A stretch of 64,000 nucleotides of DNA from Bradymonadia bacterium (lineage in GTDB: Bacteria > Myxococcota_A > Bradymonadia > UBA7976 > UBA1532), in contig JBKAGE010000040.1 in NCBI GenBank assembly GCA_046290225.1, forward strand, positions 54,272 through 118,271. The letters run 5' to 3'. The notes below the pieces were generated by a model that saw nothing but the letters and a program-made list of their open reading frames with translations, had not been told where the DNA came from and did not search any database. A program made the position numbers and the translations under genes. Below, in pieces: positions 29,825-50,320 of the stretch (position 1 is the stretch's first letter; each line of letters opens with the position of its first letter).

Positions 29825-31141
29825 ATGAAGACCGACTGGGAAACAATCTACAACCGGTTCGACCCCGAAGAGCCCGTGCCTTTTGCCCACCACGAGTGGC
29901 GGGTCAGGCGACGCTACAGCCCTCTGGAGCAACTCAATCCCCAACTCAACCGGCCTTTCGGTGACAAGCGTTTTGTCATCATCGGCACTGTAGGCACCGG
30001 TAAATCCACCGAGCTGCTCGCCCTCGCCGAGTCGAGGATCGAGCGTGACTTCGTGGTGGTGGTCGATCTGTGGTCATTCTTCGACCGGTTGGGTGATCCT
30101 TCCGCCCTCGATCACATCCAGCCCTGGGAGGCCATCTTCCTCACGGGCATTCACATCTACCGTGCCGCCATGGAGCGCGGGCATACATGGTCATCAGAGC
30201 GCACCGACGCCTTACAAAAAGCACGTCAGGCGTTCGAACCAGCAGAGGCGTCCTCCATCGACATCTTCAAGCTGGCTCAGGCCATCACCGTGGTGGTCGG
30301 TGGCGCGCTCGGTGGTGTCGCCACCCCCATCGCCACGGGGCTGAGCAAACTCGCGGCAGTGGGCAAATGGACTGTGCAAGTGGGCCGTAGAGCTAAGGTT
30401 CAGGAGCAAGACGAGAAAGTTCAGACGCTGCTCAACGCCGTCAACGCGCTGTTGGGGGATCTCAACGCTCAAGGCAAACGAGTCGCCTGCTTCATCGACG
30501 GCCTAGATCGAGTGCGGGCCCTCGACACCGTGGAGCACCTCTTCACCGAATCGACTTTGCTGGGGCACCTGAACTGCGCCACGGTCATGACCGGGCCCAT
30601 CTTGATTCGCCGGGAAGGCCTTGGCGGCGCGCTCCGTCAATTCAAAGTGCAGGTGCTCTCCAATGTGCCTGTGCTCGATCGAGAAGCACCACTCTCTGGA
30701 GTCACGACCAACGGCTCGCATTTCTTCAGAAAAGCCTGGTCTGCTCGTACACAAGACGGCGACTTGAGCCACGCGATCCCGGAGCCCCTCCTGGATCAGC
30801 TCGCCTGGGCCAGCGGAGGCCGGGCGCGCAACTTCATGCGGATGATTCGCGAGGTCGTGCAAGAAAGCTACAGCGCCCAGCTCGATGTCACGACCCAAGA
30901 CATCATCGAAGCGGTCATCGATCAACAGCGCCGCGATCTCGAGATGGGCATCAACCTCGGGCACCTCGAATTGCTCAAGAAGGTCGTGCTCAACAAGGGT
31001 CAGTTGCCCGAAGATGAACGCATCCTCGACCTGCTCAAGCGATTCTGGCTCTTGCCTTATCCCAACGAAAGCGAATGGTACTACCCAAACCCTCTGTTGC
31101 TTCTGGTGAAGCTCAAAGACGCGCTGAACACAGTTGGCTGA
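29825..31141 (+). CDS. P-loop (STAND/KAP-like) ATPase
   Basis: Walker A GTVGTGKST; Walker B FIDGLDR; SGGRAR; C-terminal WYYPNPLL. Confidence 0.8.
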   Translation: MKTDWETIYNRFDPEEPVPFAHHEWRVRRRYSPLEQLNPQLNRPFGDKRFVIIGTVGTGKSTELLALAESRIERDFVVVVDLWSFFDRLGDPSALDHIQPWEAIFLTGIHIYRAAMERGHTWSSERTDALQKARQAFEPAEASSIDIFKLAQAITVVVGGALGGVATPIATGLSKLAAVGKWTVQVGRRAKVQEQDEKVQTLLNAVNALLGDLNAQGKRVACFIDGLDRVRALDTVEHLFTESTLLGHLNCATVMTGPILIRREGLGGALRQFKVQVLSNVPVLDREAPLSGVTTNGSHFFRKAWSARTQDGDLSHAIPEPLLDQLAWASGGRARNFMRMIREVVQESYSAQLDVTTQDIIEAVIDQQRRDLEMGINLGHLELLKKVVLNKGQLPEDERILDLLKRFWLLPYPNESEWYYPNPLLLLVKLKDALNTVG

Positions 31142-33312
31142 AGAGGCTGCATCAGAGCCTCACATTTGGCAGAGGCAAGCGACTCATCATTCTGCGTGGC
31201 GCAGGCCCTGAGCACCTCGGCCCCGTGACCCGTATGCTCTGGTCCATCGGAGAGGCTCATGTGTGTCTGCGGTTCCCGCATCTGCTCGAATGCCCTCCTG
31301 AGAGCACCGTCGTGTACGTTCTCCAACCCGACGAGTTCGCTCAGGCCAACATCGCACGGCCGATCTTCAACGAGCGTCGCCTGAAAGCCATCCTCCTCGT
31401 CAGCGATGAGACATACATCTCGGCCATGAGTCACGCGCCAGATTTGATGGACTGGGCCAGCACCACCCTCGCAGCCGAGCCGGTGATCCCGAGGTTCGCG
31501 GTGGATGGGCTGCGTTTCTTGGCGAAGATATTCCCCTGTATCCACTGGGGCGGTGACGTCGAGTCTGCCCTCAAAGCGCTCACCCTCGCCTTTCCAGCCC
31601 AGCAACACCGAGCAGCACCACCAGCTTCCAACTACACACAACTCGTCGAAGACCTTGCCGATGTGCGCGGATGGCGGGTGGTTCTCGTACGTGATGAGGC
31701 CGAGGCCCTGCAATTGCGAGCCGCACGGGCGGAAGCGCGACGACGCGGCCGTGTCCTCGCCGTGGGCCCCCATGTGCCCGGCTGGCCTTTGGTTGATCCC
31801 GCTGTCGCACCATGGGCGGCCCTCGCGGCCTCAGGCATATCAGGAGAGCAAATCGCTGAGCATGATTGTGAGGCCGCCGCTCTGCTCCACCCGATCATCA
31901 ACCGCCCTGCTCTGGAGGCGCTGTCGGGCGTTGGCAGCCTCCCAGAGCTACGACGGGCTCTCAAAGACGCAGATCTCCCAGAGATACGCAAAGCGCAGCG
32001 CGCGAGGGCCCGCCGCGCCCTACGTGAGCATGTCATCGACGACTTTCACCACGTCGCAGCATGGGCGGACGTCACCCGGGCAAGCCCAGAGTTGGAATTG
32101 GGGTTCACGAGGCTCAACGCCGCGGCCTTACCCGCCCTGCACCGCAATCGACGTTGGCGACACGCCGCACATATCGCCCAGAAGATGTCATGGTTCGACC
32201 TCGCACACAGTTGGGCGCTCAGAGCCGTCGAACACAGCGAGCATGCCCACGGCCATCACCACACTGAGCACCGTAACGCCCTTCAGACACTTGGGCATGT
32301 CTTGGTGGAACAGGGACGCCTCGAGGAAGCAGAGCGCGCTCTCATGCCCATGCTGCCTGAAGGCAACACACTCAACCTCAAACTCGATGCTGAGACAGAT
32401 GAAGACCTGCTCATCTTGATGGGCATGCTCTGGTCTGAGCAAGAGAGGCACGCACAATCCGAATATGCTCTGAGAAGAGCCCTGACTCTGAGCCAGGACG
32501 ATCACACGCTCGTCTGGGCATCTCTCATCTTGAGCGAGGTCAAACTCAAGCAGCGTCAGATTGCAGAAGCCGAAGCGCTGTTGTTCCAGAGCTTGGAGGC
32601 TCTGGAAAGGTACGACGCACCAGATGCTGAGGAGCGCGCCACCATCGAATGGTTCTTCGCCAGGGTGGCGATTCAACAGAGCCGCCCGTCAGATGCCGAA
32701 GCACACTTCAAACGCGCGCTGAAACACCATCGTGCCAACACGGGCGAGATGACCTTGATGTACGCCACGATACTCTCCGAGGCTTCTCAGGCGTTGATTT
32801 TATTGGACAGACATGTAGAGGCAGAGGTGCTCGCACGCCGCGCGGTCAACATCTTCGAGACGGTCGCCCGCCAACACCCACTGATACACGCCGTGCGCTA
32901 TCGCCTTGGGATCGCGTTGACCTTCAAAGGGCGCCCTCAACAGGCAGAGGCACTCTTGCGCACAGTCCTGAGCGACATCTCGGAGCGAGTGTCTATGTTA
33001 AAGGCTCAGGTGCTAGCAGGCATCGCACGCACGTTGATATTTCAGGGTCGATACGCGGAGGCGCTGGATTTCTTTGAGCAGGCCTCAGCGCTTCATCTCG
33101 ACCTCTTCGGTGACATGCACCCCAACTATGGCATCTCACTCTTCGATTTTGCAGCCCACCTCGAGCAGTTCGACTCACAACGCAGCCTGCAGCTCGCCCA
33201 AAGAGCCCAGAAGATCCTGGTCCGTACACTCGATGAAGATCACCCTGTCCGGCAGGCGCTCGAGGCATTGATCGAGACGCTCATACAGACACCTCCACTG
33301 ACATCACTATGA
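31075..33312 (+). CDS. TPR protein with an N-terminal inactive-NTPase-like domain (start uncertain)
   Basis: NIARPIF...APDLMDW motif; C-terminal TPRs (GRYAEALDFFEQA, GDMHPNYG). Confidence 0.75.
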   Translation: MVLPKPSVASGEAQRRAEHSWLKRLHQSLTFGRGKRLIILRGAGPEHLGPVTRMLWSIGEAHVCLRFPHLLECPPESTVVYVLQPDEFAQANIARPIFNERRLKAILLVSDETYISAMSHAPDLMDWASTTLAAEPVIPRFAVDGLRFLAKIFPCIHWGGDVESALKALTLAFPAQQHRAAPPASNYTQLVEDLADVRGWRVVLVRDEAEALQLRAARAEARRRGRVLAVGPHVPGWPLVDPAVAPWAALAASGISGEQIAEHDCEAAALLHPIINRPALEALSGVGSLPELRRALKDADLPEIRKAQRARARRALREHVIDDFHHVAAWADVTRASPELELGFTRLNAAALPALHRNRRWRHAAHIAQKMSWFDLAHSWALRAVEHSEHAHGHHHTEHRNALQTLGHVLVEQGRLEEAERALMPMLPEGNTLNLKLDAETDEDLLILMGMLWSEQERHAQSEYALRRALTLSQDDHTLVWASLILSEVKLKQRQIAEAEALLFQSLEALERYDAPDAEERATIEWFFARVAIQQSRPSDAEAHFKRALKHHRANTGEMTLMYATILSEASQALILLDRHVEAEVLARRAVNIFETVARQHPLIHAVRYRLGIALTFKGRPQQAEALLRTVLSDISERVSMLKAQVLAGIARTLIFQGRYAEALDFFEQASALHLDLFGDMHPNYGISLFDFAAHLEQFDSQRSLQLAQRAQKILVRTLDEDHPVRQALEALIETLIQTPPLTSL

Positions 33313-33609: not shown

Positions 33610-35667
33610 TCACCACCAGGCCGAGAGCATCAGTCTCACCATACGGGGCGAGCCCGGGATCACGTGGGCCACCGGCAACTGACTGCGGGGCTGCGTCGTG
33701 TCCCACCACGATGCGTAGACGTACTCCCCCTCGTGCCAGCGTGTGTCGAGCAGGTTCTGCACTTGTAGATCGAGGGCCCACCAGTCGGCACGCCACCCCA
33801 GGGCGCCATCGACAACCTGGGCAGCCTTTGCCTCAGCACCAAAAGCCAATGGCCGTGGGCCGATGGCCGTGGCCAGCATGGAGGCTCGCAGGCCTCGCGG
33901 CGGGCTCAATGATGCCTTCACAGTGGCCAGCAGCGGCGGTGCACCAGGTACGGACTCCCCAGAATCGGTCAACTGAGCCCGAGCCCAGGTGACGTCACTG
34001 GAGATCAACCAGTGCCCCCCCGGGCGCAGCTCCAGCTCGAACTCACCCCCGAGACGCTCAGAGGCCGATTGCTCCACCGTGCGACCAGAGACATGATCGA
34101 AGATCGACTCCCGCTCCATCCAGATGCCGAACACTGCGGCGCCGAGAGTGAGCGCCGGCACAGGTGACCAGCGCAGGCCCAGCTCTCCCTGATCCGAGGC
34201 CACGGGGCTCAACTGACCCGTCGCCGCAGCCTGCGTCTCTGGTGGCCTGATCCCGCGGCCGGCGGCGGCGAGCACGGTAACGTGCCCGCCGAGGGGGGCC
34301 CTTCCGGAGATCCGTGGCAAGACGCGGGCGGTCCAGTCGCGACCCGACGCATTGGTCACGACATCAGTGGCCGATGCAGAGAAGGCGTCAATGCGCACAC
34401 CGGCGTCGATTTGCACCCCGTTCAGAGGAAACCACTGCACCCCGGCGCCAGCAGCGAGATGCCCTGCAGTGATCTCGGCGCCGCGATCGAGGGCCCCCTC
34501 TGTGCCCTCGGCGGCCGTCGCGGGCTGATCCGGGCGCGCAGCGTACAGCCCTCGAGCGGACTGGTCGATGCGATCCAGGCGGCCTTCGACGAGGCCACGC
34601 ACCATCCAGCTCTCCCCGAGGGGCTTGCTCACGTGTACCCGGCCACCGCCGCCCCACGTCTCTTCGCGCTGGAGTCGTCGGTCGCCACAATCCGAGTCGC
34701 TGCAGTCGGGATCGTTCACCCACCCGGTGAAGTGCTCGTCGAGGCTCAAATGACGCCAGCGGCCATGGATCTCGCTCTTCACCAGGGCGCCGGCGACGAG
34801 CGTTTGATGGCGCAATGCGAGCAGCCCTCGGGCCGAATCGCCATCGTTTTGATCACTGTAGGCGTCGTACAACCCGATGGAGGTGTCCACATCGGCCCTG
34901 CGCAGGGCGCCGGGCAGCTCGAAGTCGGCGCCATAGGCCAGCGCCATCACCTGAAGCCGATCAGCCCCCTCGCGCCAGAGCGTCCACTGACCGTTGGCAG
35001 AGAGGCGCCGGGCGGCACGCCGCGCGCCGAAGCCTTCGTCCTGCATGGCCTCGAGGGCGACGAAGTCGGAGGCCGCTCGATCCTTGGGGGCCCACATGGC
35101 CAGCACGCGATGGCGGCCCGTGTCTCCGATTTGGTAGCTCCCCCTGAGGCCCCGCGCCTGCTCTTCCACACCCAGCTCGAATGCCATGGAGCCGGCATTG
35201 GCGAAGGGACCCTGATCCAGCTGGGAGGTCCCCCGTACCACCTTCAGCCGGCGCACGCCTTCGGGGATGACGGCGCCGAGATCGAGGTAGCCATTGCCGT
35301 GGATGTTGGACCACTCGTTGAGCGGTACACCACCAAGGCGTACTTCGACATCGGCACCATGCGCGGCGTCGAACCCGCGCAAGTAGAGCTGCGGGCCCTT
35401 ACCCTCGGCGCCGTGCTGGACCACGTACACCCCTGGCGCCGCTCGGAGCAGGTCCTCGGCGGATCGCCGCGGCAAGGCCGTGAGCACGCTCTGGTCGAGC
35501 GTGCGGCCACCAGCAGTCTCTCGCGATCGACGACCCGTGACCACCACTTCGGGCTCCGCGGTGTCGCCCTCGGCCTCCTCTTCGACGATCTCGATGTCTT
35601 CCTCAGACTCGAGCTGCCCAAACGCCGCAGCAGGCATGAGGCACAGGAGCAGGCAGATCAGTCGCAA
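33610..35667 (-). CDS. TonB-dependent receptor
   Basis: EVVVTG TonB box; plug motifs LRGFDAAHG and HGNGYLD; NLLD...PR; terminal aromatic residues. Confidence 0.9.
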   Translation of the reverse strand: MRLICLLLCLMPAAAFGQLESEEDIEIVEEEAEGDTAEPEVVVTGRRSRETAGGRTLDQSVLTALPRRSAEDLLRAAPGVYVVQHGAEGKGPQLYLRGFDAAHGADVEVRLGGVPLNEWSNIHGNGYLDLGAVIPEGVRRLKVVRGTSQLDQGPFANAGSMAFELGVEEQARGLRGSYQIGDTGRHRVLAMWAPKDRAASDFVALEAMQDEGFGARRAARRLSANGQWTLWREGADRLQVMALAYGADFELPGALRRADVDTSIGLYDAYSDQNDGDSARGLLALRHQTLVAGALVKSEIHGRWRHLSLDEHFTGWVNDPDCSDSDCGDRRLQREETWGGGGRVHVSKPLGESWMVRGLVEGRLDRIDQSARGLYAARPDQPATAAEGTEGALDRGAEITAGHLAAGAGVQWFPLNGVQIDAGVRIDAFSASATDVVTNASGRDWTARVLPRISGRAPLGGHVTVLAAAGRGIRPPETQAAATGQLSPVASDQGELGLRWSPVPALTLGAAVFGIWMERESIFDHVSGRTVEQSASERLGGEFELELRPGGHWLISSDVTWARAQLTDSGESVPGAPPLLATVKASLSPPRGLRASMLATAIGPRPLAFGAEAKAAQVVDGALGWRADWWALDLQVQNLLDTRWHEGEYVYASWWDTTQPRSQLPVAHVIPGSPRMVRLMLSAWW

Positions 35668-36497
35668 TGGCCTTCACCATCGATGTGGCCCACCTGGGCC
35701 ACCTGAGCCTCGATGAACCCCCAGAGATCGGTCACGTCGGCGCTGCCCACCTGGTACCGAGCCTCGGCGGTGATGTCGACGGCGGCGAGCTCCGCGGGGG
35801 TGATGTCGCCATCGCCGTCTGCATCTGCCGAAGCGATGAGTTCGAAGGCCACCTGCGGATCGCTGGCGTCGAGATCGTCGAAGAACAGGTGATCGCCGTG
35901 GATGGTGAGCTCGTTCGCCCCGCCGCCTTCACCGAGTTGCGTGTCGATCTCGCAGCCCGTGTAGGTGCGGCTGAGGTCAAAGCCCCACTGAAAGACGAGG
36001 GACTGCTCCCCCTTGGTGGCCGACCCGCTCACCCACACGCTGTAGCCCTCGTCGCGCATCAGCTGTCGCTGAGCCTCGGTGGCGTTGCCCGCCTCGGTGG
36101 AAGAGGCCGGCGGCGCGAGGGTGTAATCGAGCCGATCGTAAGTGCCCTGAGGCAGCATGATCTCGGCGAGCGGGTGGCCGCCCTCCGAGGTCAGGGCCAG
36201 GTCGAAGATCGCGGGCCCGGCGACAGCCTGTAACGCACCGCCTCCCGAGGCGACGCCCGCTGAGTCGAGGGACACCACAAAGGCGTCGAAGGTCACCGAC
36301 CAGCCGTCGACGAACTCGTCGGCGGGGATGCCTTCTTCGATGAAAGACTCCCCATAAATCGTCAGGGCATAACTGCCCTGCGAGGCCTCTGTGCTCTCGT
36401 CTTCGTCGTCGCCACATGCGCTCAGAGAGAGCGCGCACGCGAGGGCGAGGGTCCAGCGCGTCGACACGGCGTTCATGGCAAAGCTCTTCATGGACAT
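35658..36497 (-). CDS. Lipoprotein of the TonB operon
   Basis: Lipobox LSAC; TIHGDHLFFD; C-terminal GHIDGEGHC; start overlaps the upstream stop (TGATG). Confidence 0.8.
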   Translation of the reverse strand: MSMKSFAMNAVSTRWTLALACALSLSACGDDEDESTEASQGSYALTIYGESFIEEGIPADEFVDGWSVTFDAFVVSLDSAGVASGGGALQAVAGPAIFDLALTSEGGHPLAEIMLPQGTYDRLDYTLAPPASSTEAGNATEAQRQLMRDEGYSVWVSGSATKGEQSLVFQWGFDLSRTYTGCEIDTQLGEGGGANELTIHGDHLFFDDLDASDPQVAFELIASADADGDGDITPAELAAVDITAEARYQVGSADVTDLWGFIEAQVAQVGHIDGEGHCD

Positions 36498-37279
36498 CAC
36501 GGCGTCTCCTGGGTCTCGACGAGATAGAAATCGTGGCTCTGGGTGCGTCGCACCAGCAGGTTGTAGGGCGCGCTGCCCACATCGAACGTGAGCATGTCTT
36601 CGGATGACTTGAGGGCGTCGAAATCGATCCCGTCGAAGAGTGTGTCGCCTTCGACTGGGTCGACGAGCACCAGCCTCAACGCCACCTGGGGCTGCGCATC
36701 TGCAGACAGCGACAGGCTCATCGGTGCGCCAGCAAGCGCCCGGCCCGCGTCTTGATCCACGACGCTCTGGAACTCGACGCACTCACCCGCCCGACAGGCC
36801 TGACCTTCGAAGATCAGCGTGTGGCCCACGAGAGGATCCCCTTCGGGCACATCATCCGTTGTGGCCGTGGTGAACAAGAAGTCCGCACCGCCATACGTCC
36901 CTGTCAGGAAGGTCCCTTCGCCGAGGGTGACGCCCTCGAGACAGTCCACCACGTGGTGCCCGAACAGCTCTCCGAGCACCACCCCACCGGCGCCGTGACC
37001 CGGGTGAGCGTGGGCCTGGCCGATGAGCCAGGACCACCACGGACGGGCGGCCTGCTCCACGACTTCTTCTGTGAATACAAGCTCGTCGATCACGAACTGG
37101 CAACGACTCAGAGTGATCTCGTACTCGAGATCAGTGGTCACGGGGGCGCTCGCAGCAGGCGCACTCAGAACAGGCAGGCGCACACTGCTGGCTTCCTTTT
37201 CGTCTCCACCACAACTGGCGGCGCCGACGAGGAGCAACCCCAGACCCCACGGCGCACCGCGCCGAGCAGTCAACATCAT
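36497..37279 (-). CDS. Lipoprotein with an AHAHPGH motif
   Basis: Lipobox AASC; His motif; coupled to the downstream gene. Confidence 0.8.
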   Translation of the reverse strand: MMLTARRGAPWGLGLLLVGAASCGGDEKEASSVRLPVLSAPAASAPVTTDLEYEITLSRCQFVIDELVFTEEVVEQAARPWWSWLIGQAHAHPGHGAGGVVLGELFGHHVVDCLEGVTLGEGTFLTGTYGGADFLFTTATTDDVPEGDPLVGHTLIFEGQACRAGECVEFQSVVDQDAGRALAGAPMSLSLSADAQPQVALRLVLVDPVEGDTLFDGIDFDALKSSEDMLTFDVGSAPYNLLVRRTQSHDFYLVETQETP

Positions 37280-37345
37280 CTTGATTTCCTCGCACTGGGC
37301 ACGTTGTGCCCAAAACAGCCCGACGTGTGTCGAGCGGGATCTACA

Positions 37346-37849
37346 TCAAATGTGTTTGGGGGCGAGGAGATCCTGGGGGGGAGCGCGGATGGGCCCCCCG
37401 CAAATCACAGCGCGCTGAGGCGCGATCTGCTCGGGGGGTTGGGGTGTCTCCGCGACAGGCAGAGTGACTGTGAGTGGGAGTGTGATCGCCGTGAGGAGCA
37501 ACCACGCGTCGCCGTGGGCAAGGCTGCCGTCGCCGTGGGCGAGGCAACAAACGCCATGGCCCTCCGACGCGTCTTCCGCGTCGTCGGCATCTGTCTCCGG
37601 CCCCATATTTTCGGGGGCGAAGAGCGCCATCGGGTCGAAGTCGTCGTGGTGCGCACCATGGCCTGAGTGACCATGCTCATGGTGATGCTCATGGGCGTGG
37701 TGGTGCCCATGATCGTGTGCTCCATGGTGATGCTCAGTGTCGTGTCCCCACATGTGCACAAGGGGCAGCAACACCACGGCCCAGAGCCACAGCCCGAGGG
37801 CCAGGGGCCCCCAGCGGCGGACAGCACCACGATGTCGCATCGCGCTCAT
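37346..37849 (-). CDS. His-rich DUF2946-like leader protein with C-terminal RAPP
   Basis: TM segment, poly-His tract, HGVCCLAHG and PIRAPP; GAGG RBS. Confidence 0.75.
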   Translation of the reverse strand: MSAMRHRGAVRRWGPLALGLWLWAVVLLPLVHMWGHDTEHHHGAHDHGHHHAHEHHHEHGHSGHGAHHDDFDPMALFAPENMGPETDADDAEDASEGHGVCCLAHGDGSLAHGDAWLLLTAITLPLTVTLPVAETPQPPEQIAPQRAVICGGPIRAPPQDLLAPKHI

Positions 37850-38061
37850 GGTGCCTCGGATACCATAAACCCATGGCTCATATCGAGCCCCACGGCAGCG
37901 CCTTCGAGGGGCAAACACCTGGACGAAGGCGCAGGGGTTTTCACCGGAAGATCGACAACCCCGAGGGGGTTTCCGCTATCATCCCCACCGCAACGCAAGC
38001 GTGACGCGCTTGCTGATCCCACTCGCCTTCGGGCGCCCCACGAGACGGACCTGTTCGACCG

Positions 38062-41000
38062 TTGAAGCGACTGCGCATTGTCACTGATCTCGAGCCCCTC
38101 GCCGGGGCACTGCTCAAGACCTTCGAAGAACTCGACCTGGACCAGGTGGACCACCACCGCACGGCAGTCGATCGCCTCGAGCTGAGGTATCGGGAGGGCG
38201 AAGGCGAAGCCAGGCTCACCCAGATCCTCGACTGCATCAAACCGCTGCAGCCCTCAGTCCTCATGGACGCACGCCTCACTGAGGCCGATCTCGAGCTCTA
38301 CCTCGGCGATCAGAAGGGCCTCAGCGATTGGAAGGTGAAGATCTACTCCGACTCGGAGGGGGTGGCTCAGTCATTCCGGGGCTTCGCCCGGGAGATGGGC
38401 TTCGCCGACGCAGGCCAGGAGATGGGTTTCCAGAAGCAGGCGTTGCTGGCCTATGGCGGCGCGAGCCCCTTCGCTCGACAGGTGCTGCGCTGGTTCGCCG
38501 CCAGTCAGGGCGTACATCTCACCGAAGAGAAGCGGTGGGGTGACGACGATCACGACATCTGGCTCTACATCCCCGATCCGGTGCTCGCCGACAAGCGCCC
38601 CCGAGAGCGCTTCGAGGTGGAGGTGGTCTGCGATGAGTACGAGCGAGGCCGCGCAGTCATGGGCCTCCTGGAGAAAGCGGGCTTCGAGCGGCTCACTCTA
38701 CGCGTAATGGATGTGGAGGACGCCCGCCACAGCAAGTTCACCATCGAGCCCGGGGCGTTTCGAAAGGGCACCGGCCTCGAAGACTTCGAGCTGATGCAGA
38801 GGGTGGTGGCGGAGCACCTCGAAGACGCAGGCCTCGATCCGGCCCGTTACCCCCTCGAGGTCGAGGGGGACGAGGACAACCTCAAGGCCCGCGTCATTCT
38901 GCCCCTGGGCATCTACGCCCGGGGCGAGCTGCCACCCTACGTCGGCGACATCCCTGAGCGCTTCTCGGTGACGCTGCGCACTGACGACCTCAACGGCGTG
39001 CGCACGCTCCAGTCTCAGCTCCAGGGCATGGGCTTCCACCGCGTCGCTGTAGAGATGGCGGGCTCCCGGTTGCTGGGATTCCAGATTCAGTGGGGCAGCG
39101 CCAGGGACGCGTACGACGTCCGCGGCCAGGTCAAAGAGCTGATCGAGCGACAGATGGAAGAGTTGTCGGTGCCCACCGACATGGAGCTCTTCACCACCTT
39201 CGCCAGCAGCGGGGGCCAGAGCGCCTCGGAGATCGTCATCGACTTCCCCACCACGGGCCTCGACGACGGTCGCCTCAAGCGCCGTCTGGAGATGGCCTGT
39301 AACGAGTGGGAGTTCACCTTCAAGGCCCCTGATCCCGATCAGTACCGCCCGGTCACCGACGCCATGCGCACCTTGCAGTGGAAGTCCTTCGAGACCGAGC
39401 ACGAGTCGATCAGCGAGCCTCGCATCAAATACGGCGGCGCCCCGCCGGCTCTGGTGGCCTGGATCCGAGAGCAGGTGCACCGCCTGTCGGGCACCCGGGC
39501 AGAGCTCGACAAGGCCTGGGACAACGATGACGACGACATCTGGGTTTGCCTGCCAGCGCCCGGAGAGGAGACCGTCGACACCCCCGGGCCCATCGATCTG
39601 TCGAGCTGGTTCGAAGATCGAGAAGATGCCCCGGTGCCCTTCCTCGAGATCGGCGCCCAGGCGATCCGGGTCGGCGAGGTCACCCTGCGCCGCCGCCCCC
39701 AGGGCGGCACCGACAGCGGCCTGGTGCCCGAGGCAGAGCAGTTCCTGCACTACTGCCTCGATCAGCGCACCGCGGAGACGATCAGCCATGTGGCCCTGAG
39801 CGTCTCGCTCTCGGAGCCGTGCCTGCTCGAGGGTGAGACGAGCACCTCGAAGACCAGCAGCGTGCTCTACCTCGCCTCTCTGCTCAACCAGCCGGTGGTG
39901 CGCCTGAACCTCAATGGGCAGACCGACACCGGAGAGCTGATCGGCCGGTTCCTGCCCGAGAGCCTCACCCGATTGCCGGTGGAGCCCGAAGAGTTGCTGG
40001 CCCACCGGGACGATCTCAAAGCGTCGACGGTGCAGCTGCTCGAGCGTGCCCTCGGCGAGGGCCGGGATCTCACCGAGGTCGAGGTGCAGCAGATCATCCG
40101 CGACGAAGATCTGCCCACTCGGCCCTGGCGCTGGCAGGACGGCCTCGTCGTCGGCGCCATGAAGCGAGGCTGGTGGGTGGTGCTCGACGAGCTCAACCTT
40201 GCCGAGCCGCAGATCCTCGAGCGCCTGAACTCCGTGCTCGAGCGCACGCCGTCGTTGGTGCTCACGGAGCACGACAACTCGGTCCTCGGCCCTGGTGGGG
40301 CGCCGGTGCACCCGAACTTCCGCATCTTCGCCACCATGAATCCTGCGGAATACGCCGGCCGCACCGCCCTGTCGCCGGCCTACCGCGACCGCTGGACGGG
40401 CTACCGCTACGTGAGCAGCCCCGGGGAGGCCGAGTACCTGGCCATGCTGCGGTTCCTCGTCTATGGGGCCCAACCCGAGGTGGGCCTCTATGGTGCCGCC
40501 TTCACGGGCCCGGCCATCGAGGGCCCTGCCCCCATGGCCAACCTCGCAGATCTGCCCTACATCGACGCCTTCCTCGAGGCCCTCGCCCGCTTCCACGCGG
40601 CGCTGGAGAGCGCAGTGGGCCGCAGCGAGGATCGAGCGCCTCTGCTCGGCGCCCGACGCAAAGAGCGATACGTCTTCACCCGCCGCGGCCTGCTCTCGGT
40701 GATGGACTATCTGAGCCGGATCACCGCGAGCCACGGCACCGACGCCAACGGCGCCACCCGGGCGATGCGCATGTCGCTGGCCCGTTACTACCTCGGCCGT
40801 ATCTCGTCACCGGAAGACCAGCAGACAGTGGCCCGCCTGCTCGACGCCGCAGGCATCGGCCCCAACACATGGTCCCCTGGCGAAGCCGAGGAAGACGAAG
40901 AGCAGCCCCAGACCGAGAGCCGACGGGCCACCGTGGAAATCCACGACCCGTCTGACGCCCCAGAGCTCACCGAGTTCGTCTTGAGAGAGCTCGGACCACG

Positions 41001-41226
41001 GAAGATCTCCATCCTCAAGGAGATCAGATCGCTCACCGGTGACAGCATCAAGCGGACCAAGCTCCTCCTGGACAGTCTCCCCGCATCGTTCTCGGTCCGG
41101 GTGAGTCGCCCTGAGGCGATGTCCATCGTGAAGCGTTTCGAAGGTCTCGGCGCCCGCATGAGCTTCAAGCGGCCCACCCGACCGCCAGAGCCGTCAAAGG
41201 TGAGCGATGACGACATCCCCTTCTGA
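38062..41226 (+). CDS. MoxR/midasin-like AAA+ ATPase with N-terminal repeats and an L7/L12-CTD-like domain
   Basis: LLEGETSTSKTS, RLNLNGQTD, VVLDELNLA, FATMNP; KISILKEIRSLTG; ends DDDIPF. Confidence 0.85.
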   Translation: MKRLRIVTDLEPLAGALLKTFEELDLDQVDHHRTAVDRLELRYREGEGEARLTQILDCIKPLQPSVLMDARLTEADLELYLGDQKGLSDWKVKIYSDSEGVAQSFRGFAREMGFADAGQEMGFQKQALLAYGGASPFARQVLRWFAASQGVHLTEEKRWGDDDHDIWLYIPDPVLADKRPRERFEVEVVCDEYERGRAVMGLLEKAGFERLTLRVMDVEDARHSKFTIEPGAFRKGTGLEDFELMQRVVAEHLEDAGLDPARYPLEVEGDEDNLKARVILPLGIYARGELPPYVGDIPERFSVTLRTDDLNGVRTLQSQLQGMGFHRVAVEMAGSRLLGFQIQWGSARDAYDVRGQVKELIERQMEELSVPTDMELFTTFASSGGQSASEIVIDFPTTGLDDGRLKRRLEMACNEWEFTFKAPDPDQYRPVTDAMRTLQWKSFETEHESISEPRIKYGGAPPALVAWIREQVHRLSGTRAELDKAWDNDDDDIWVCLPAPGEETVDTPGPIDLSSWFEDREDAPVPFLEIGAQAIRVGEVTLRRRPQGGTDSGLVPEAEQFLHYCLDQRTAETISHVALSVSLSEPCLLEGETSTSKTSSVLYLASLLNQPVVRLNLNGQTDTGELIGRFLPESLTRLPVEPEELLAHRDDLKASTVQLLERALGEGRDLTEVEVQQIIRDEDLPTRPWRWQDGLVVGAMKRGWWVVLDELNLAEPQILERLNSVLERTPSLVLTEHDNSVLGPGGAPVHPNFRIFATMNPAEYAGRTALSPAYRDRWTGYRYVSSPGEAEYLAMLRFLVYGAQPEVGLYGAAFTGPAIEGPAPMANLADLPYIDAFLEALARFHAALESAVGRSEDRAPLLGARRKERYVFTRRGLLSVMDYLSRITASHGTDANGATRAMRMSLARYYLGRISSPEDQQTVARLLDAAGIGPNTWSPGEAEEDEEQPQTESRRATVEIHDPSDAPELTEFVLRELGPRKISILKEIRSLTGDSIKRTKLLLDSLPASFSVRVSRPEAMSIVKRFEGLGARMSFKRPTRPPEPSKVSDDDIPF

Positions 41227-43183
41227 TCCCACGGTGGATCCCAAGACGGGCTCTGAGGCACCCGATGCCAAGGCTCGCGCGGCATCTTCCTCTGTTACGC
41301 ATCGCCCCATCACCCACAGCCAGCGTCTCGCGGCCAATCAGCTCGCCGCCATCGCCGCAGGGCTCTGCCAGGATGCAGGCATCGGCCTCGAGGTGCATCA
41401 GGGGGGCTGGGCCTTCGACACTGTACGTCGGGTGATTCTGGTGTCAGCGAAGGCCCTCGCCGAGGACGGCCCCGAGGTCTGCGCCGGTATCCTGGCCCAT
41501 GAGGTGGGCCACTACTTCATCAGCCGCTACACGTGGTTCGCCCTCGAGCATCTCGCGCTGCCCTCGATCCACCTGCTGCTCAACGGCATCGAAGATCCAC
41601 GGGTGAACCGTTGGATGCCCACCCGCTACCCGGGCTCGGGGCCGTGGCTGCAGGCGGTCTATGCCCATGAGTCCCGTACCCGCGACAAGGCAGTCACGGC
41701 GCCGGACTTCATCTTGTTCTGCCTCGAATGCGCCATGGAGGAGTCCCGCGACTGGCAGCCCGCGCCGGAGTCCACGGCGCTGAGCGCACGCCTCGTCGCC
41801 GCTCTCGACGAGACCCGGGCTGCCCGGCGGTCATATGCCGAGGATTACTTCCCCGAGCCCGATCTCGATCCATCCGTCTTCGAGCCCGGGTTGATGGAGA
41901 CATGGCTCGAGCAAGTGGAGCCTGCCCTGCGGACCACCACCCGTGGGTTCCTGCCCACAGCCGAAGAGCAGGGCATCCAGCTGCTCTCCCTCGCAGCGCT
42001 CGAGCTCGCCATCGAAGAGATCATCCCCGTAGCGCATCGGCTCTACGCCGCCGACATCGATCGCATCCAGCGCCACCTTGAGCAGAACAGCGCTGCCGAG
42101 CGCCGAGCCCGGCAAGCGATCTCCGACAAAGATCTCGCCGCCGCCCGGGGCGTCATCAGTGAAGCGATGCGGGGCGAGCCCAACCCGGGTGAGAAGCCCT
42201 CGGAGAGCGCCTCCCGGCGCCGTGAAGCCGAGGCGCTCTTGGAGATCTACGCCCAGGGCATCGTGCGGCCGCCCTTGATCAAGGGGCGCCCGAGGCGAGG
42301 CCGCCCCGATGGCCGCTCGGATCTCCCAGTGCATCCCAACAGCCCTCTGCGCTGGCCCGAGCGCGCAGAAGACGCCTACGAGCGCGCCCGCAAGAAGGTG
42401 GCTGATCAGGTCGAGCGCCTGGTGGGCGCCCTGGAGCGGGCGTTGCGCCCCCGCAAACGCCTGGGGTTGCAGTCGGGCTACCCCTCGGGCTTCCGCATGG
42501 ACATGCGCCAGCTCATGGCCTTCGAAGCCGATCCCCGTCGCTACAACGAGCTGTGGGTGCGCAAGTCGATCCCTGATCGCCGGGACGCCGCCATCAGCCT
42601 GCTCGTGGATCTCTCGGGCTCGATGCGAGGCGAAAAGTCAGAGGCTGCGCTTTTGGGCACGGTGCTGCTCGCCGAGACGTTGTCTCGCGTGGGCGTGCCC
42701 TTCGCGATACACGGCTTCCAAGATGTGCTCGTGTCGATGGCGAGCTTCGGTGAAGGGTTGAGCCGCAAAGCCCAGCGGGCCATCGGTGAGATCCCACAAG
42801 AGATCAACGGCACCCGCGAGGGCGGCAACAACCAGCCGGGCTACAACGACGACGGTCCCTGCCTCGAAGCCGCCGCAGAAGACTTGCTGCGGGCGCCGGC
42901 CATCGACCGTCTGCTCATCGTGGTGAGCGACGGTCTGCCCGAAGGCCGCCACTCCGATCGCGACGATCTGAACCGGGCGATCCAGCGCCTGGTCGACCCA
43001 CGGGTGCCTCTGTCGCTCATCGGCGTAGGCCTGGGCCCCGACACCGGCCACGTGGTGGACTTCTACCCCCGCTCTCGTGCCGACGTGCCGCTGGTAAAGT
43101 TCGCCGAGGTCATCGGTGGCCTGATCCGCGAAGCCCTGCTGGGCCCAGATGAAGAAGGCGGGCGCAGCGCCCGCCGTTCGTGA
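41207..43183 (+). CDS. vWA-domain protein with an N-terminal HExxH metallopeptidase-like domain (CobT-like)
   Basis: LAHEVGH, NGIEDPRVN; MIDAS DLSGS and VVSDGLP. Confidence 0.85.
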   Translation: MTTSPSDPTVDPKTGSEAPDAKARAASSSVTHRPITHSQRLAANQLAAIAAGLCQDAGIGLEVHQGGWAFDTVRRVILVSAKALAEDGPEVCAGILAHEVGHYFISRYTWFALEHLALPSIHLLLNGIEDPRVNRWMPTRYPGSGPWLQAVYAHESRTRDKAVTAPDFILFCLECAMEESRDWQPAPESTALSARLVAALDETRAARRSYAEDYFPEPDLDPSVFEPGLMETWLEQVEPALRTTTRGFLPTAEEQGIQLLSLAALELAIEEIIPVAHRLYAADIDRIQRHLEQNSAAERRARQAISDKDLAAARGVISEAMRGEPNPGEKPSESASRRREAEALLEIYAQGIVRPPLIKGRPRRGRPDGRSDLPVHPNSPLRWPERAEDAYERARKKVADQVERLVGALERALRPRKRLGLQSGYPSGFRMDMRQLMAFEADPRRYNELWVRKSIPDRRDAAISLLVDLSGSMRGEKSEAALLGTVLLAETLSRVGVPFAIHGFQDVLVSMASFGEGLSRKAQRAIGEIPQEINGTREGGNNQPGYNDDGPCLEAAAEDLLRAPAIDRLLIVVSDGLPEGRHSDRDDLNRAIQRLVDPRVPLSLIGVGLGPDTGHVVDFYPRSRADVPLVKFAEVIGGLIREALLGPDEEGGRSARRS

Positions 43184-45103: not shown

Positions 45104-48100
45104 TCAGTGCGCCTCTACCGCGAGGTCCGGCAAATGCCGACGCCACCACAGCTCGGCACGATCGTGATCCCAGGGGCGGCTCACGTCTACCTGCAGCAAC
45201 GCCCGCTCCACCTCTCGGGCGCTCTGGAAGCGATCTTCGGGTGACTTCGCCAGAAGCTGCATGATCACCTGCTCCAGGCCCTCGGGCACGTCGAGCTCCA
45301 CCTGTGTCGAGGGCCGTGGTGGGGGCGTCTGGATGTGCTTCATCAGCAGCTTCATCACGTTGGGCGCCTCGAAGGGCAGCATGCCCGTGAGCAGCCAGTA
45401 GCCCAGGCAACCCAGTGCGTAGAGATCCACCCGGTGATCTGCCTCGCTGTCACCAAGGGCGAGCTCTGGTGCCATATAGGCCGGCGTGCCCTGGATCACC
45501 CCCTCCATCGTGAGGCCGGTCTCCAGCTCTGCCACGGGGCCCACGTGCTTCACGAGACCGAAATCGAGGACCTTCACGAAGTCGGTCTCGACACCCACGC
45601 GACAGGCGTACACGTTTGCCGCCTTGATGTCGCGGTGCACCAGACCCGCCGCATGGGCCTCGGCAAGGGATCGACAGATCTGCACCATCAGGCTCACCAC
45701 CCGCTCTGCTGGCAACGGACCGAAGCGCTCCACCATCTGCTGCAGATCGATGCCTTCGAGCAGCTCCATCACATAGAAGAACGCCCCGTCGTCGCCGATG
45801 CCGTAGTCGTACAGCTCTACGCTGTGGGGTGAGCGCAATGCCGCTGTGGCCTGAGCTTCTCGTTCGAATCGGCGTACCAGGCGCTGACGGCCCTCAGTGT
45901 CGCCAGCGGACTGACTCAAGCTGGAGTTGCTGATGAGCTTGATGGCCGCCGGGCGCCGCAGATATTGGTGCTGTGCCTTCCACACCTCGCCCATGCCGCC
46001 ACGCCCCAACTCCGAGATCAGTCGATAGCTGCCGAGGCTCTGGCCCGAGGTGGCGTCGTCGGGCAGCAGATGATCGGGGATCGGCAGCGGGCCCTCTTCG
46101 TCGTGCACCATGGCGGCGCGGTTGAGCACGTTCTCCAGCTCCGCGAGGTTGCCGGGCCAGCGGTGACGACGCAGGCGGACCATCCCCTCGTCGGTCACCC
46201 CGGTGAAGGCTCGCTGCATGCGACCGTTGATCACCTCGAGGATGTGTTGCACTGCCATGGGCAGATCTTCGAGACGCCGCCTCAAAGGCGGCAGAACGAG
46301 GGGGAACACGCTGATGCGGTAGAAGAGATCTTCTCGAAACTTCCCCGTGGGGATGAGGGCCTCAAGATCGTGACGGGTGCCCACCACGAGGCGCACCGAG
46401 GTGTCGGGATCGTCGATGCGACCCAGCAAATCGCCCTGGGCTGCGCCATCGAGGGCGGAAAGCTCTTGGATGAAGAGGGTGCCCCCCTCGGCCATCTCGT
46501 AGTGTGCCTCCACCTCTGCAGGGCTCAGGCGGCCACCGCTCAGTTGGATGAAGGGCCCGCTCTGTCGAGCGCTCAGCTGGTGGATGGCCCGGGCCATGTA
46601 GCCCTTGCCGGTCCCCGGCTCGCCCTTGAGAAGCACCGGCGTCTCTGATCGCGCCACCTGCCGGGCCCTGTCGGCCACCTCCTGGAACGCCGGGCTCTTG
46701 GAGATCAGCGTAATGCTGCGGCTGCTGCCCTCGCCCTTCATCCGCTGCTCAAGACGGCTGATGCGGCTCTGCGCCTCTTCGAGGGCGTGCTGGGTTTTCT
46801 CCAGCGCGGCCTTGTGACTCAAAGCCTCCAGCGGCCCCGCCAGCAAGCCCGGCAACTGATCCATCACCGCATGATCAGCCTCGGTGGGCAGGCAGCCCCC
46901 GCCCTCGGGCCGATTGCCTTCGATGGCCAGCACCCCCACCGCCTGTTTCGCCACGCGAATCGGCATGGCAGTGACCCACCCCGCACATTGACAGCCGTTG
47001 AGCAGATCGCCGCCGGCAGTGCTGGTCCGGGCCTCGCCACTCTGAAGCACCTGATCGAAGAGGGCCTCGGGCATTTTGGTCCGGGCACGGGATCCTTCGC
47101 CGATGTTCTTCTCACGGCCGAAGCCCTCGATGCGCCACTCGCTCCCCTGAGGTCGGGCGATGAAGACACGCATGGCCTGCAGCCGCGCTCTGATCTTCTC
47201 GGCGGCGGCGTCGAGGGGGCCCTCCATGGAAGGGCAGCGCCAGCCAAGGGACTCGATGATGTCGGCCACCCCCTGCTCGGGCAGCCGCACCGCCTGTAGA
47301 TCGTGATGGCTGATGAGGCTGTCGATCTGCGCCACACGGTTCACGGCCCCCCAGGCCTGCGCCGAAGCCCGGCATGACTCGAGACAGCGGCGATACTCCG
47401 GCTGCATGCCAAGACGCTGGGCGAACTGTGCCCCTCGGCCACAGCTGAGCACCTGATCGCCGAGGTGCGCCATGGCCTGGGCGCCCTCCATGGCCTGCTG
47501 CATCAACGACCAGGCGGTGCCCAGATCACCGTCGAGTGCGGCGAGCTCGGCTCGGAGCATGGCCACGCCATGATCGTAGGTCGGGGGTGCCTCGACACCG
47601 TTGTCGTCCACGATGGTGCCAAAATCGGTGTACGGGATCAGGCTCTCCAGAGCCACCTGCACTGACTGGCGCCAGGGCTGAGCGGCGGCGAGGCCCTCAC
47701 GGCTCGCCACCCGCTCGGCCATCTGCCCTGCAGCGAGACCGGTGAGCAATGCCATCTCCGGCAAGCACAGCCCCTCTTCCCACATGCTCACCGTGGGCTC
47801 GGCTTTCTCGAGCACGCGCCAGGCCTCTTCGGGGCGGCCTTCGGTGAGATGACGACGGACCTCGGTCATCCAGAGCACCGCAGCGGCAGCGGCCATGCCC
47901 GGCTGATCGATGACCTGCTCGATGATGTCGTCTTCGCTGTAGATGCGCCCACGATACAAGTGCTCGCGAGGACCCTCACCGAGCAGGCGCCGGGCGGCGA
48001 TTTGCGGCACGATGTGCTCCATCAACGCCTGCTCGAACCCCACCTGCCGTACATAATCGGCCCGCGCTGCGGCGTCTGCCGCGAGACGCGCCATGGGACC

Positions 48101-50320
48101 ACTCCCGATCAGCTCCACCACGCTGAGCGTGGCCAGCGCGTAGCAGGCATAGATGGGCTCGTTCAGGGCATCGCAGACCCTGAAGGCCTCTCGGGCGAGG
48201 GCAATGCACTGGGGCCGACCCCAGCCGAGAAACCCACCGTTGATGATGGAGAGCGACGCGGTGATGCCGAACGATCTCTGGTCTTCGAGCTTGCGCGCCA
48301 GGGCGATGCCCAGACGCCGGGCTTCGAACTGCGTGGGCTTGTCCCCTCGGGGCCGGGTAGGCCAGCACACCAGACCAAAAGGCGTGGCCTCGCTCACCCC
48401 GTGGGTGAGGGCGTGATCCACAAGGAACGCACCCACCCAGAGCCCCCATTGGGGGTTCAAGACCCACCGGGCCGAGGTGCTCAACACGATCAGCTCGGCG
48501 ATCATCCGTTGAGCAGGATCAGCGAGCATGGGGGCGTCGAGCAGGCTGCCCAGCGGCCTCTCCCTGAGCGTCTGATGGATGCGACGACCCAGGCGCTCTA
48601 CGTCTTCCATACTGGCGTCGTCGTCGGGCAGCTTCACCCCGAAGGCAGCCATGGCGTCGTACACCGCTGCGCTGGCGCCCTCGTTGTCGCCGCTCCGGGT
48701 GCGAGCGGCGATGAGCGTGCGATAGAGACCGCCCTTCTGCAGCGCGGTCCGGGCATAGGGCAGCGCCGCTTCGAAGCCCCACTCCACGGCGTCGGTGCGA
48801 TCAGCGAGCCACGCGATGGTCATCAGCTCGCTGTGCAGTTCGAACGTGAGGGCATAGCGCCGGGCCCAGGTGTCCTCCGGCAGGGCCTTTACCGCAGCCT
48901 GCAGATGAGAGAGGGCAGCCTTGAAGGCCGCATCCCGGCGGGCGATCCGAGCTGCCTGACGGTTCACTCGGGCCACGGCGTAGCGGCTGTCGGCGTCGAA
49001 GGTCTCTGGCGCCGTGCTCAGGGCCCGGGTCAGGTGAAAGGCCACCTGGAAGATTCGGGTGTCCTGACGGGTCGAGGTGGTCCGCGCCAGAAGTCGCAGC
49101 CCCGCGAGGCGATGGATCCGCGCCCGCTCACCAAGGCTGAGGCCGCCATACGCCACTTGCTGCACAGCGTCGTGGGCAAAGCGATACCAGCAACGGCCGT
49201 GGGCATGCTCCACCTCGACGAGCTCCAGCTCCACCGCCTCTTGCAGCAACTGCTGCAGCTCAGTGATCGATCGCTCTTCGATCTCGGCGAGATCAGAGAC
49301 GTCGAAGAGCCCACCGAGGGCCGAGGCCACCTGCAGCGCCGCCCGGGTCTCCGTCGACAAAGGATCGAGACACCCCGCCACCAATGTGTCGGGATCCACC
49401 GTCTCGAGTGTCTCGAAGATCTCGCTCAACACTCCGAGGGGGCCGTCGAAGGGCCCGAAGCGGCCGGTGTTGAGCATGCCTTCGTGCTTCAAACGCCGAA
49501 ACAGCGCCTTGAGGTAGAGGGGCAGCCCACCGGTGCGCGCGATCAGCCGCTGTACGAGCACCGTGTCACCTGCGGCCTCTTCACCGATGCTCTCGCGGAT
49601 CCAGGTGGTCACCGCGGGTACGTCGAGGGGCCCGAGGGTCAATCGGGCGAAAGAGGTCTCCCCCGCCTCGAGCGTCTCCACCATGGCCCTGAGCGCCCCG
49701 GCTTCGTCACCATCGAGCCGACACGTGGCCACCAGCATGAGATGCCGAATACGCTGATCGCTCACCCGAGCGCTGATGGCGGAGAGTGAGGCCTCGTCAG
49801 CCCACTGCAAGTCGTCGAAACACACCACCAAGGGAGCGCCCTCGGCAGCCAGGGTGCTCACAAAGCCTCGAAACAGCCGATTGAAGCGCGTTCGGGCCTC
49901 GTTGCCGGGCAGCCGACGCACTGAAGGGGCATCGGGGAACAGCTCGCCAAGCTCAGGCAATACATCGACGAGCACCCGCACCTCGTCTTCGAGCACGCCT
50001 TCGAGGCGCCTCTTCCATTGCGCCAACTGATCGCCATCTGCCTTGAGGCGACGCCGAATCAACCCCCGGAACGCCTCGGCGAGGCCGGTATAGGGACGAT
50101 CGCGCTGCTGCCGCTCGAAGCGCCCATAAATGAATGCGCCCCCCTGCACCTCGACGGCGTCTCGGAGCGTACGGGCCAGAGCCGACTTGCCGCCACCGAT
50201 CGGACCATCGATGAGCACCATCTCGCTGGGCCCGTGGGCCACTCGAGACAAGGTGGCTCGCAGCGCCTGCTGCTCAGTCTCCCTGCCATAGAGGGGGCTC
50301 TGAGGGCGTGGCTCGTTCAT
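45104..50320 (-). CDS. Fusion: P-loop ATPase/TPR + GAF-like + degenerate sigma54 AAA + C-terminal Ser/Thr kinase
   Basis: GPIGGGKS, DDLQWAD; GEPGTGK, FREDLFYRI, WPGNLAEL; GRGGMG, HRDIK, DFG, APE. Confidence 0.88.
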   Translation of the reverse strand: MNEPRPQSPLYGRETEQQALRATLSRVAHGPSEMVLIDGPIGGGKSALARTLRDAVEVQGGAFIYGRFERQQRDRPYTGLAEAFRGLIRRRLKADGDQLAQWKRRLEGVLEDEVRVLVDVLPELGELFPDAPSVRRLPGNEARTRFNRLFRGFVSTLAAEGAPLVVCFDDLQWADEASLSAISARVSDQRIRHLMLVATCRLDGDEAGALRAMVETLEAGETSFARLTLGPLDVPAVTTWIRESIGEEAAGDTVLVQRLIARTGGLPLYLKALFRRLKHEGMLNTGRFGPFDGPLGVLSEIFETLETVDPDTLVAGCLDPLSTETRAALQVASALGGLFDVSDLAEIEERSITELQQLLQEAVELELVEVEHAHGRCWYRFAHDAVQQVAYGGLSLGERARIHRLAGLRLLARTTSTRQDTRIFQVAFHLTRALSTAPETFDADSRYAVARVNRQAARIARRDAAFKAALSHLQAAVKALPEDTWARRYALTFELHSELMTIAWLADRTDAVEWGFEAALPYARTALQKGGLYRTLIAARTRSGDNEGASAAVYDAMAAFGVKLPDDDASMEDVERLGRRIHQTLRERPLGSLLDAPMLADPAQRMIAELIVLSTSARWVLNPQWGLWVGAFLVDHALTHGVSEATPFGLVCWPTRPRGDKPTQFEARRLGIALARKLEDQRSFGITASLSIINGGFLGWGRPQCIALAREAFRVCDALNEPIYACYALATLSVVELIGSGPMARLAADAAARADYVRQVGFEQALMEHIVPQIAARRLLGEGPREHLYRGRIYSEDDIIEQVIDQPGMAAAAAVLWMTEVRRHLTEGRPEEAWRVLEKAEPTVSMWEEGLCLPEMALLTGLAAGQMAERVASREGLAAAQPWRQSVQVALESLIPYTDFGTIVDDNGVEAPPTYDHGVAMLRAELAALDGDLGTAWSLMQQAMEGAQAMAHLGDQVLSCGRGAQFAQRLGMQPEYRRCLESCRASAQAWGAVNRVAQIDSLISHHDLQAVRLPEQGVADIIESLGWRCPSMEGPLDAAAEKIRARLQAMRVFIARPQGSEWRIEGFGREKNIGEGSRARTKMPEALFDQVLQSGEARTSTAGGDLLNGCQCAGWVTAMPIRVAKQAVGVLAIEGNRPEGGGCLPTEADHAVMDQLPGLLAGPLEALSHKAALEKTQHALEEAQSRISRLEQRMKGEGSSRSITLISKSPAFQEVADRARQVARSETPVLLKGEPGTGKGYMARAIHQLSARQSGPFIQLSGGRLSPAEVEAHYEMAEGGTLFIQELSALDGAAQGDLLGRIDDPDTSVRLVVGTRHDLEALIPTGKFREDLFYRISVFPLVLPPLRRRLEDLPMAVQHILEVINGRMQRAFTGVTDEGMVRLRRHRWPGNLAELENVLNRAAMVHDEEGPLPIPDHLLPDDATSGQSLGSYRLISELGRGGMGEVWKAQHQYLRRPAAIKLISNSSLSQSAGDTEGRQRLVRRFEREAQATAALRSPHSVELYDYGIGDDGAFFYVMELLEGIDLQQMVERFGPLPAERVVSLMVQICRSLAEAHAAGLVHRDIKAANVYACRVGVETDFVKVLDFGLVKHVGPVAELETGLTMEGVIQGTPAYMAPELALGDSEADHRVDLYALGCLGYWLLTGMLPFEAPNVMKLLMKHIQTPPPRPSTQVELDVPEGLEQVIMQLLAKSPEDRFQSAREVERALLQVDVSRPWDHDRAELWWRRHLPDLAVEAH

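Follow-up and report, generated by a model that had tools for sequence, protein, structure and literature searches.

The closest described relatives of the system treated here pair a MoxR-type AAA+ ATPase with a vWA (von Willebrand factor A) domain; in midasin (Mdn1/Rea1), an acidic stretch lies between the motor and this domain. Group 2.2 jumbo phages encode a MoxR ATPase together with a metallopeptidase-vWA partner (Iyer et al. 2021, PMC7824862), and the MoxR-vWA ternary conflict systems contain decoy domains and, in one class, the beta-propeller type, L12 or ClpS insertions in the vWA proteins (Kaur et al. 2020, PMC7159879). The hexapeptide DDDIPF is the C-terminal tip of bacterial SSB, the protein that binds single-stranded DNA (PMC5872125), the pockets that bind this tip read the terminal Phe and the Asp residues (PMC10164576), and the ribosomal stalk protein bL12 binds IF2, EF-Tu, EF-G and RF3 with a positive site that is conserved on its helices 4 and 5 (PMC6753160). 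Here we describe a predicted MoxR-type ATPase (P0001) of a Bradymonadia bacterium that ends in a domain resembling the C-terminal domain of bL12 (the L12 domain), followed by DDDIPF. The gene lies in a stretch of 64,000 nucleotides (assembly GCA_046290225.1, contig JBKAGE010000040.1, positions 54,272 to 118,271, forward strand), which we call the window and to which all coordinates refer (Table 1). The tail is a real, non-random and optional feature of a midasin-like MoxR/peptidase-vWA pair, and the reading that we favour, with a probability of about 0.4, is that a variable C-terminal slot of the ATPase carries the L12 domain and the DDDIPF tip as optional cargo, which most likely serves as bait or adaptor.

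The pair resembles the jumbo-phage pair and CobS/CobT-like pairs in consisting of two genes, in having a partner with an N-terminal HExxH and a C-terminal vWA domain, and in its look-alikes in PHROG and the Atlas, which in case of the partner are CobT/vWA proteins in the Atlas, many of them viral. Unlike the jumbo-phage pair, it is chromosomal, and the ATPase has five LytR_C-like repeats in front of the motor and a variable cargo slot behind it. The earlier classification of the ATPase as MoxR-like, made in a sequence-only reading of the window, holds, and profile comparison makes it more exactly midasin-like: a family profile of 32 homologues matches midasin chains with E~1e-129, summed over 8-9 stretches, and CbbQ with 0.008, so that, judged by these profiles, the family is far nearer to midasin than solved bacterial MoxR proteins are. 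Midasins are the closest solved structures by sequence, and four midasin-sized proteins, which their length, module count and PDB match suggest to be midasins, reach 34-40% identity to the ATPase family in their best single modules. [quoted passage not shown] With the ternary systems the pair shares the combination of MoxR and vWA, and a P-loop variant of theirs, GXXXTAKS (PMC7159879), resembles the GETSTSKT of P0001; in contrast to them, L12 is found on the ATPase and not on the vWA protein, and there is no effector domain besides the peptidase. Membership in such a ternary system was rejected because the long-form loci have no conserved third gene (no VMAP, iSTAND, FtsH or beta-propeller/TPR component was found). 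Our literature search, which covered neither most subscription journals nor the supplements (accession lists) of PMC7159879 and PMC7824862, found no paper on this ATPase family or on SSB-type tips of MoxR ATPases.

The open reading frame of P0001 begins with TTG, codes for 1054 amino acids and ends with ...RPTRPPEPSKVSDDDIPF before a TGA stop. The sequence-only reading had proposed an SSB-like tail, and this tail is indeed there in frame, with DDDIPF as residues 1049-1054 (41206-41223) directly before the stop codon (41224-41226). Like the SSB tip, it is the identical hexapeptide, follows a Pro-rich linker and offers Asp residues together with an Ile-Pro-Phe end whose terminal carboxylate is free; unlike SSB, the ATPase has no OB fold (no PF00436 match, for which reason an SSB fusion was rejected), and only few family members carry the tip. 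Such an end is very rare. P0001 is the only one of 73,786 stop-to-stop frames of at least 60 amino acids in the 8.58-Mb genome to end in D[IVL]PF, and residue frequencies give a chance of 2.4e-8 per protein for the ending. In 201 genomes of the phylum, [DE]DIPF followed by TAA or TGA was matched 99 times (85 genomes; reversed control, 1), and these matches comprise 78 SSBs (by blastp or Pfam), the query, about 17 other proteins and three short pieces, of which one is probably the end of an SSB and the other two are probably no genes. With about 17 non-SSB carriers per roughly 1 million phylum proteins, the protein total being an estimate, one extra strict-tip lineage would be expected about 0.005 times in 222 family clusters, or about 0.01 times among acidic-tailed proteins only (both estimates), and, with clustering at 80% identity, 2 of 223 family clusters have the strict end. 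By these comparisons, the tip is probably not a chance occurrence. The argument rests on the strict form: when 61 genomes were searched for the looser [DE][ILVM]PF-stop, there were about 158 matches and a similar number in the reversed control, and the DEIPF end of P0152 alone is therefore not significant.

A first search found 243 homologues, and four of the 120 listed end in D[IVL]PF. These are P0001, its closest homologue P0004 (75% identical), which alone has the same L12 plus DDDIPF end, and P0095 and P0099 (42-43%), which end in DDIPF without an L12 domain; P0006 (55%), the sister of the query pair, has neither element and carries an acidic tail only. The full comparison comprised 270 rows with complete cores (excluded were 8 of 208 protein rows, whose cores were incomplete, and every protein above 1500 residues), of which 5 have a [DE][ILVM]PF end and 12 an L12-like domain. 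On a tree of the cores only, the DIPF end requires three changes and the L12 domain six, a tree that cannot separate gains from losses. A single clade of the five tip-bearing rows is rejected (approximately unbiased test, p-AU 0.00036) in a quick tree without mixture model of 40 rows, for which the focus rows were taken together with neighbouring rows and 8 chosen at random. Judged from these trees, both the tip and the L12 domain recur in separate lineages. Within each lineage, the alignments indicate that the tip is held while its surroundings diverge: between P0003 and P0004, the core is 82-87% identical, the L12 domain 43%, the linker 45% and the tip 6/6, and P0095 and P0099 share 54% of their tails and all of the last five residues, DDIPF. 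A contig of a related strain that covers 41038-41277 differs at 8 positions, and none of the listed differences falls in the tip, four being unlisted.

The assignment of the L12 domain, also made in the sequence-only reading, was borne out. Pfam Ribosomal_L12 (PF00542) matches residues 973-1036 (40978-41169) with 33.9 bits at a cut-off of 25.9, and a PDB search with the last 88 residues (40960-41223) is led by chains of bL12 (E 2e-7). A ClpS adaptor was rejected, as ClpS is not among the Pfam matches at E<=0.1, and so was a mis-annotated ribosomal protein, as the true bL12 of the host is encoded on a separate contig (C78). The domain is 31% identical to host bL12; unlike the ribosomal protein, the ATPase has no Pfam match to the N-terminal dimerisation domain, and the whole-protein equivalog TIGR00855 gives 29.9 bits, below its cut-off of 84.4. 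At seven positions that we take to form the factor-binding face, the ATPase has K, I, L, K, R, K, K versus K, I, I, K, R, K, K in host bL12, and although the L12 domains are only 19-31% identical to host bL12, these basic-face positions are mostly K or R in five of the six lineages that have one. The changes at core positions are conservative, which indicates that the L12 fold is being kept, and as 10 of 61 genomes of the phylum have additional L12-like matches (above cut-off in 5), the domain travels.

Both elements follow a family core that ends with a conserved LLDAAGIGPxxW and is present in 33 of the 401 genomes searched in the phylum. In front of the motor, the repeats match each other in profile self-comparison with probabilities of 99.6 (2 vs 5), 98.8 (3 vs 4) and 98.3 (4 vs 5), with repeat 1 weaker (59-94); Pfam LytR_C is above cut-off in P0007, P0095 and P0110 and below it in P0001 itself, and an Atlas search with residues 85-500 gave no usable match. 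The Pfam AAA_5 match covers residues 667-777, and in an alignment of 32 rows the module of the predicted ATPase has a variant Walker A, GETSTSKT (compared to the canonical GxxxxGK[ST], K and T are invariant and the second G is S in 32/32 rows), as well as DE 709-710, TMNP and RDRW. We take their roles to be those of the Walker B, sensor I and arginine finger motifs, RDRW being presumably the arginine finger. Behind the core, 152 of the 270 rows stop within 10 residues, 41 have acidic ends, often with scattered aromatics, and other proteins carry S1/OB (P0222, L099), PPC (P0213), HTH (P0180) or, with weak matches, SH3/Tudor-like cargo (P0209, L138). By alignment, neither L12 nor DDDIPF belongs to the family core, and both are optional, real add-ons. 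One homologue (L006:6648-10791) is frameshifted near the N-terminus and thus split. The GC content of the locus is like that of the genome, the composition reveals no island, and viral contigs gave one weak match at 22% and no close relative.

Table 1. Features of the ATPase locus and its surroundings in the window.
Feature	Position	Strand	Basis or remark
Midasin-like MoxR AAA+ ATPase (P0001)	38062..41226	+	Pfam AAA_5 57.9 bits; family profile vs midasin
N-terminal region, about five LytR_C-like repeats, residues 1-500	38062..39561	+	Profile self-comparison
AAA+ module, residues 573-790	39778..40431	+	Invariant or near-invariant columns, 32-row alignment
Lid region, ending with LLDAAGIGPxxW (end of family core)	40432..40872	+	Homologue alignment
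bL12 C-terminal-domain-like domain, residues 969-1037	40966..41172	+	Pfam, PDB matches, bL12 alignment
Short Pro-rich linker RPTRPPEPSKVS	41173..41205	+	Sequence; 45% identical in P0004
SSB-like C-terminal tip DDDIPF and stop codon	41206..41226	+	Tip identical in P0004, P0258, P0259
Partner: zincin-like HExxH domain and CobT_C-type vWA domain	41207..43183	+	Pfam CobT_C 41.3 bits
P-loop protein (weak AAA_16/KAP matches), then TPR protein	29825-33312	+	No PADLOC match
TonB-dependent receptor, two probable lipoproteins, His-rich protein	33610-37918	-	Transcribed away from ATPase
1758-residue hybrid: AAA_16, GAF-like, sigma-54 activator, Ser/Thr kinase domains	45104-50380	-	Domain matches

A short form of the ATPase (about 500 residues, often with BRCT) comes after a conserved upstream helical-repeat gene (L031, L032, L034, L116, L128, L135). 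BRCT was found in 17 of the 120 short-form matches listed, which may hint at a link to DNA. RecQ adjoins the system in six short-form loci that lack the tip and probably represent one lineage, and we do not count this as support.

How could a bait or adaptor work in such a machine? In analogy to known MoxR-vWA systems such as NorQD (PMC13036017) and to midasin (PMC3495828), the ATPase would form a hexameric ring in which the vWA domain of the partner would dock, gripping a client via its MIDAS metal, and the HExxH domain may then cut the gripped client. A hexamer would display six copies each of the basic bL12-like face and of the acidic tip with its IPF end, and face and tip could thereby catch proteins that bind the two host hubs and keep them near the motor. 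Clients of such a bait may be translation GTPases or their look-alikes on the one hand and binders of the SSB tip on the other, for example the host RecQ, which was found in the genome, or phage recombinases, as phage Red-beta is described to bind the SSB tip (PMC6393309). The cargo would widen or redirect the choice of clients in some lineages, whereas most would run the machine without it.

Several observations weigh against this bait or adaptor reading. The tip is missing in 265 and the L12 domain in 258 of the 270 rows, and the two coincide in a single lineage. No DIPF-type end was found in 76 closed frames from 80 metagenome loci (of 146), 135 further rows, partly overlapping the earlier ones, yielded no additional tip lineage, and a search aimed at residues 880-1054 gave 23 proteins without a further carrier of both elements. 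In a fourth lineage (P0230, L210), DDDDDIPF is followed by seven further residues in 8/8 members, so that the Phe is internal and a free carboxylate is unnecessary there; the next codon is TAC, one change away from a stop, which would be weak evidence for a read-through in this lineage. DDIPF tips also end unrelated proteins, such as a kinase, PcfJ-like proteins and proteins of no assigned family. The single SSB match of the host genome (C47:51113-51859) ends in DDDPIPF and not in DDDIPF, albeit with agreement in the last three residues and in acidity, and 10 of 11 same-family SSBs with readable tips end in DPIPF (L160-L180; a further three closed frames lacked a tip of the SSB type, and another 12 were cut by the contig end). 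SSBs in this family of genomes thus mostly end in DDPIPF rather than DDDIPF. The genome, 99% complete, yielded neither Pol III chi nor ExoI, two of the four partners that the sequence-only reading had named. One L12 lineage (the P0054 group, 5 rows) is acidic at the face positions, none of 9 proteins of the locus was matched by PADLOC, so that a defence signal is absent, and long-form loci show no conserved neighbour except the partner. As for the proposed mimicry of SSB, it has partial support, as the strict tip is enriched, held within lineages, provided with the residues that the pockets read and poorly explained by the gene overlap; what speaks against it is its rarity, the deviating host tip and the missing chi and ExoI. 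The sequence-only reading had named absence of the tail from close homologues as its refutation, and this largely applies: the tail is shared by the 75% homologue and absent from most others, including P0006, so that the machine itself cannot have SSB mimicry as its function.

The main rival of bait or adaptor, possible though somewhat less probable, is a tolerated accretion, in which an unconstrained end behind LLDAAGIGPxxW collects acidic low-complexity tails and small mobile domains, with DDIPF as a generic acidic-aromatic tip, found on the disordered tails of many proteins in Myxococcota, without a specific job. This would agree with the many acidic, aromatic-containing ends, with the 21 of 99 strict matches that are not SSB (among them three XseB, two PcfJ-like proteins, a kinase and a DUF3127 protein), with the additional L12-like matches elsewhere in the phylum, with the L12 domain being the fastest-changing folded part of the ATPase, and with the P0230 lineage, which has apparently lost the free terminus. 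The rate at which the phylum produces strict tips predicts far too few of them for a second lineage to be expected, however, and the conservative core changes of an L12 domain whose fold is kept do not fit well to a meaningless appendage.

Rather unlikely is a docking inside the system, by which the tip would bind the MIDAS metal or the peptidase cleft of the partner, or fold back onto the basic L12 face of the same protein, and so act as a latch for autoinhibition or assembly; its resemblance to SSB would then be convergent. MIDAS sites are described to bind an acidic residue of the ligand (PMC13036017), acidic tails are the commonest cargo, the basic domain of the query lies 11 residues ahead of the acidic tip, and upstream partner genes of the short form also have acidic-aromatic ends, e.g. 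DTGDLPF in L131. However, the partner is present whether or not the ATPase has a tail, and more than half of the rows are nearly tailless; P0095 and P0099 carry the tip although their lineage has no L12 domain, and the model does not call for the exact IPF sequence.

The remaining explanation concerns the partner gene, the only conserved neighbour of the long-form ATPase. The partner contains HEVGH (41498-41512), NGIEDPR, DLSGS (42608-42622) and VSDG, ends just past the vWA domain and has no beta-propeller after it; HExxH is kept in 59 of 76 partner frames (duplicates and partial frames counted), and the MIDAS motifs DLSGS and SDG are invariant across 28 aligned partners. One group of partners lacks HExxH and keeps the vWA motifs (L006, L007, L013, L016-L019, L021, L027, L064, L074, L117). 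The overlap with the vWA frame, raised as a caveat in the sequence-only reading, is real as sequence: the D-D codons contain an ATG (41207), which precedes the ATPase stop by 20 bases, and a second in-frame candidate, GTG 41234, lies past this stop. A -20 start with a Shine-Dalgarno-like word occurs in both DDIPF-ending loci with DNA (L001, L026) and is absent among the candidates listed (up to four per locus) for the remaining 69 of 71. In many ATPases the last residues are GEE or similar, and their codons spell the ribosome-binding site of the partner ahead of an overlapping start at -4. That DDDIPF is an accidental reading, in the other frame, of a partner start M-T-T-S-P-S would be in line with this distribution, with the frequent MT(T/S)-type starts of partners and with the GEE ends, but we consider it most improbable, as the tip codons are the preferred ones in the ATPase frame (ATC 0.91, CCC 0.48 and TTC 0.90 of their families) and would be rare in the partner frame (ACA 0.07, TCT 0.09, CCT 0.17), a GTG at +7 is present in both loci as well, the usual -4/-1 coupling was counted by hand in about 41 of 71 loci, L210 has DDDDDIPF without an overlapping start there, P0004 reads KAVPDDDIPF and cannot retain the Shine-Dalgarno word of the query, and two of three changes just beyond the stop in the related strain alter partner residues (codons read by hand), from which a loosely constrained partner N-terminus follows. 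The overlap is thus an unlikely source of the tip, although it may add constraint.

A more far-reaching version of the bait reading, to which we give only little credence, would see these proteins as single-module midasin relatives whose swappable slot carries mimics of cellular hubs (SSB tip, stalk domain, S1), traps phage or host proteins and feeds them to the vWA-peptidase, i.e. as an integrated-decoy protease and a living model of midasin's ancestral module.

Some observations stand apart from these readings. The strongest side result are prokaryotic six-module AAA proteins: AAA modules like those of the family stand in tandem, four to six per protein, in P0165, P0139, P0148, P0273, P0188 (named Omnitrophota) and P0238, and P0165 (4005 residues; NCBI name Thermoproteota archaeon) has six modules, midasin-lid matches and a C-terminal vWA domain, which would be a midasin-like layout in a prokaryote, with mis-binning of the contig being possible. 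In PMC3495828, the six-module form is placed early in eukaryotes. The small subunit of exonuclease VII, XseB, has in three phylum genomes (L255, L285, L286) a long linker and then DDDIPF or DEDIPF, and on this pattern it is a better candidate for mimicry of the SSB tip than the ATPase. Further non-SSB [DE]DIPF ends (L146, L239, L276, L277, L246, L278, L233, L291) belong to a BRCT protein with two SH3-like repeats, PcfJ-like proteins, a Ser/Thr kinase, a DUF3127 protein and proteins of no assigned family. Among the neighbouring genes, the TonB-dependent receptor group looks like a metal-uptake cluster and is not conserved beside ATPase homologues.

Prokaryotic six-module AAA proteins, one of them with a terminal vWA domain, bear on the question of how midasin and dynein arose. 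If the tail of P0001 is merely tolerated, it is a curiosity on an uncharacterised module. If the slot is a bait, it would show by what means MoxR-vWA machines, most of whose clients are unknown, become specific; the SSB tip would have one more carrier that is chromosomal and not an SSB, and the tips of XseB, PcfJ-like and BRCT proteins would then suggest a wider docking code in Myxococcota.

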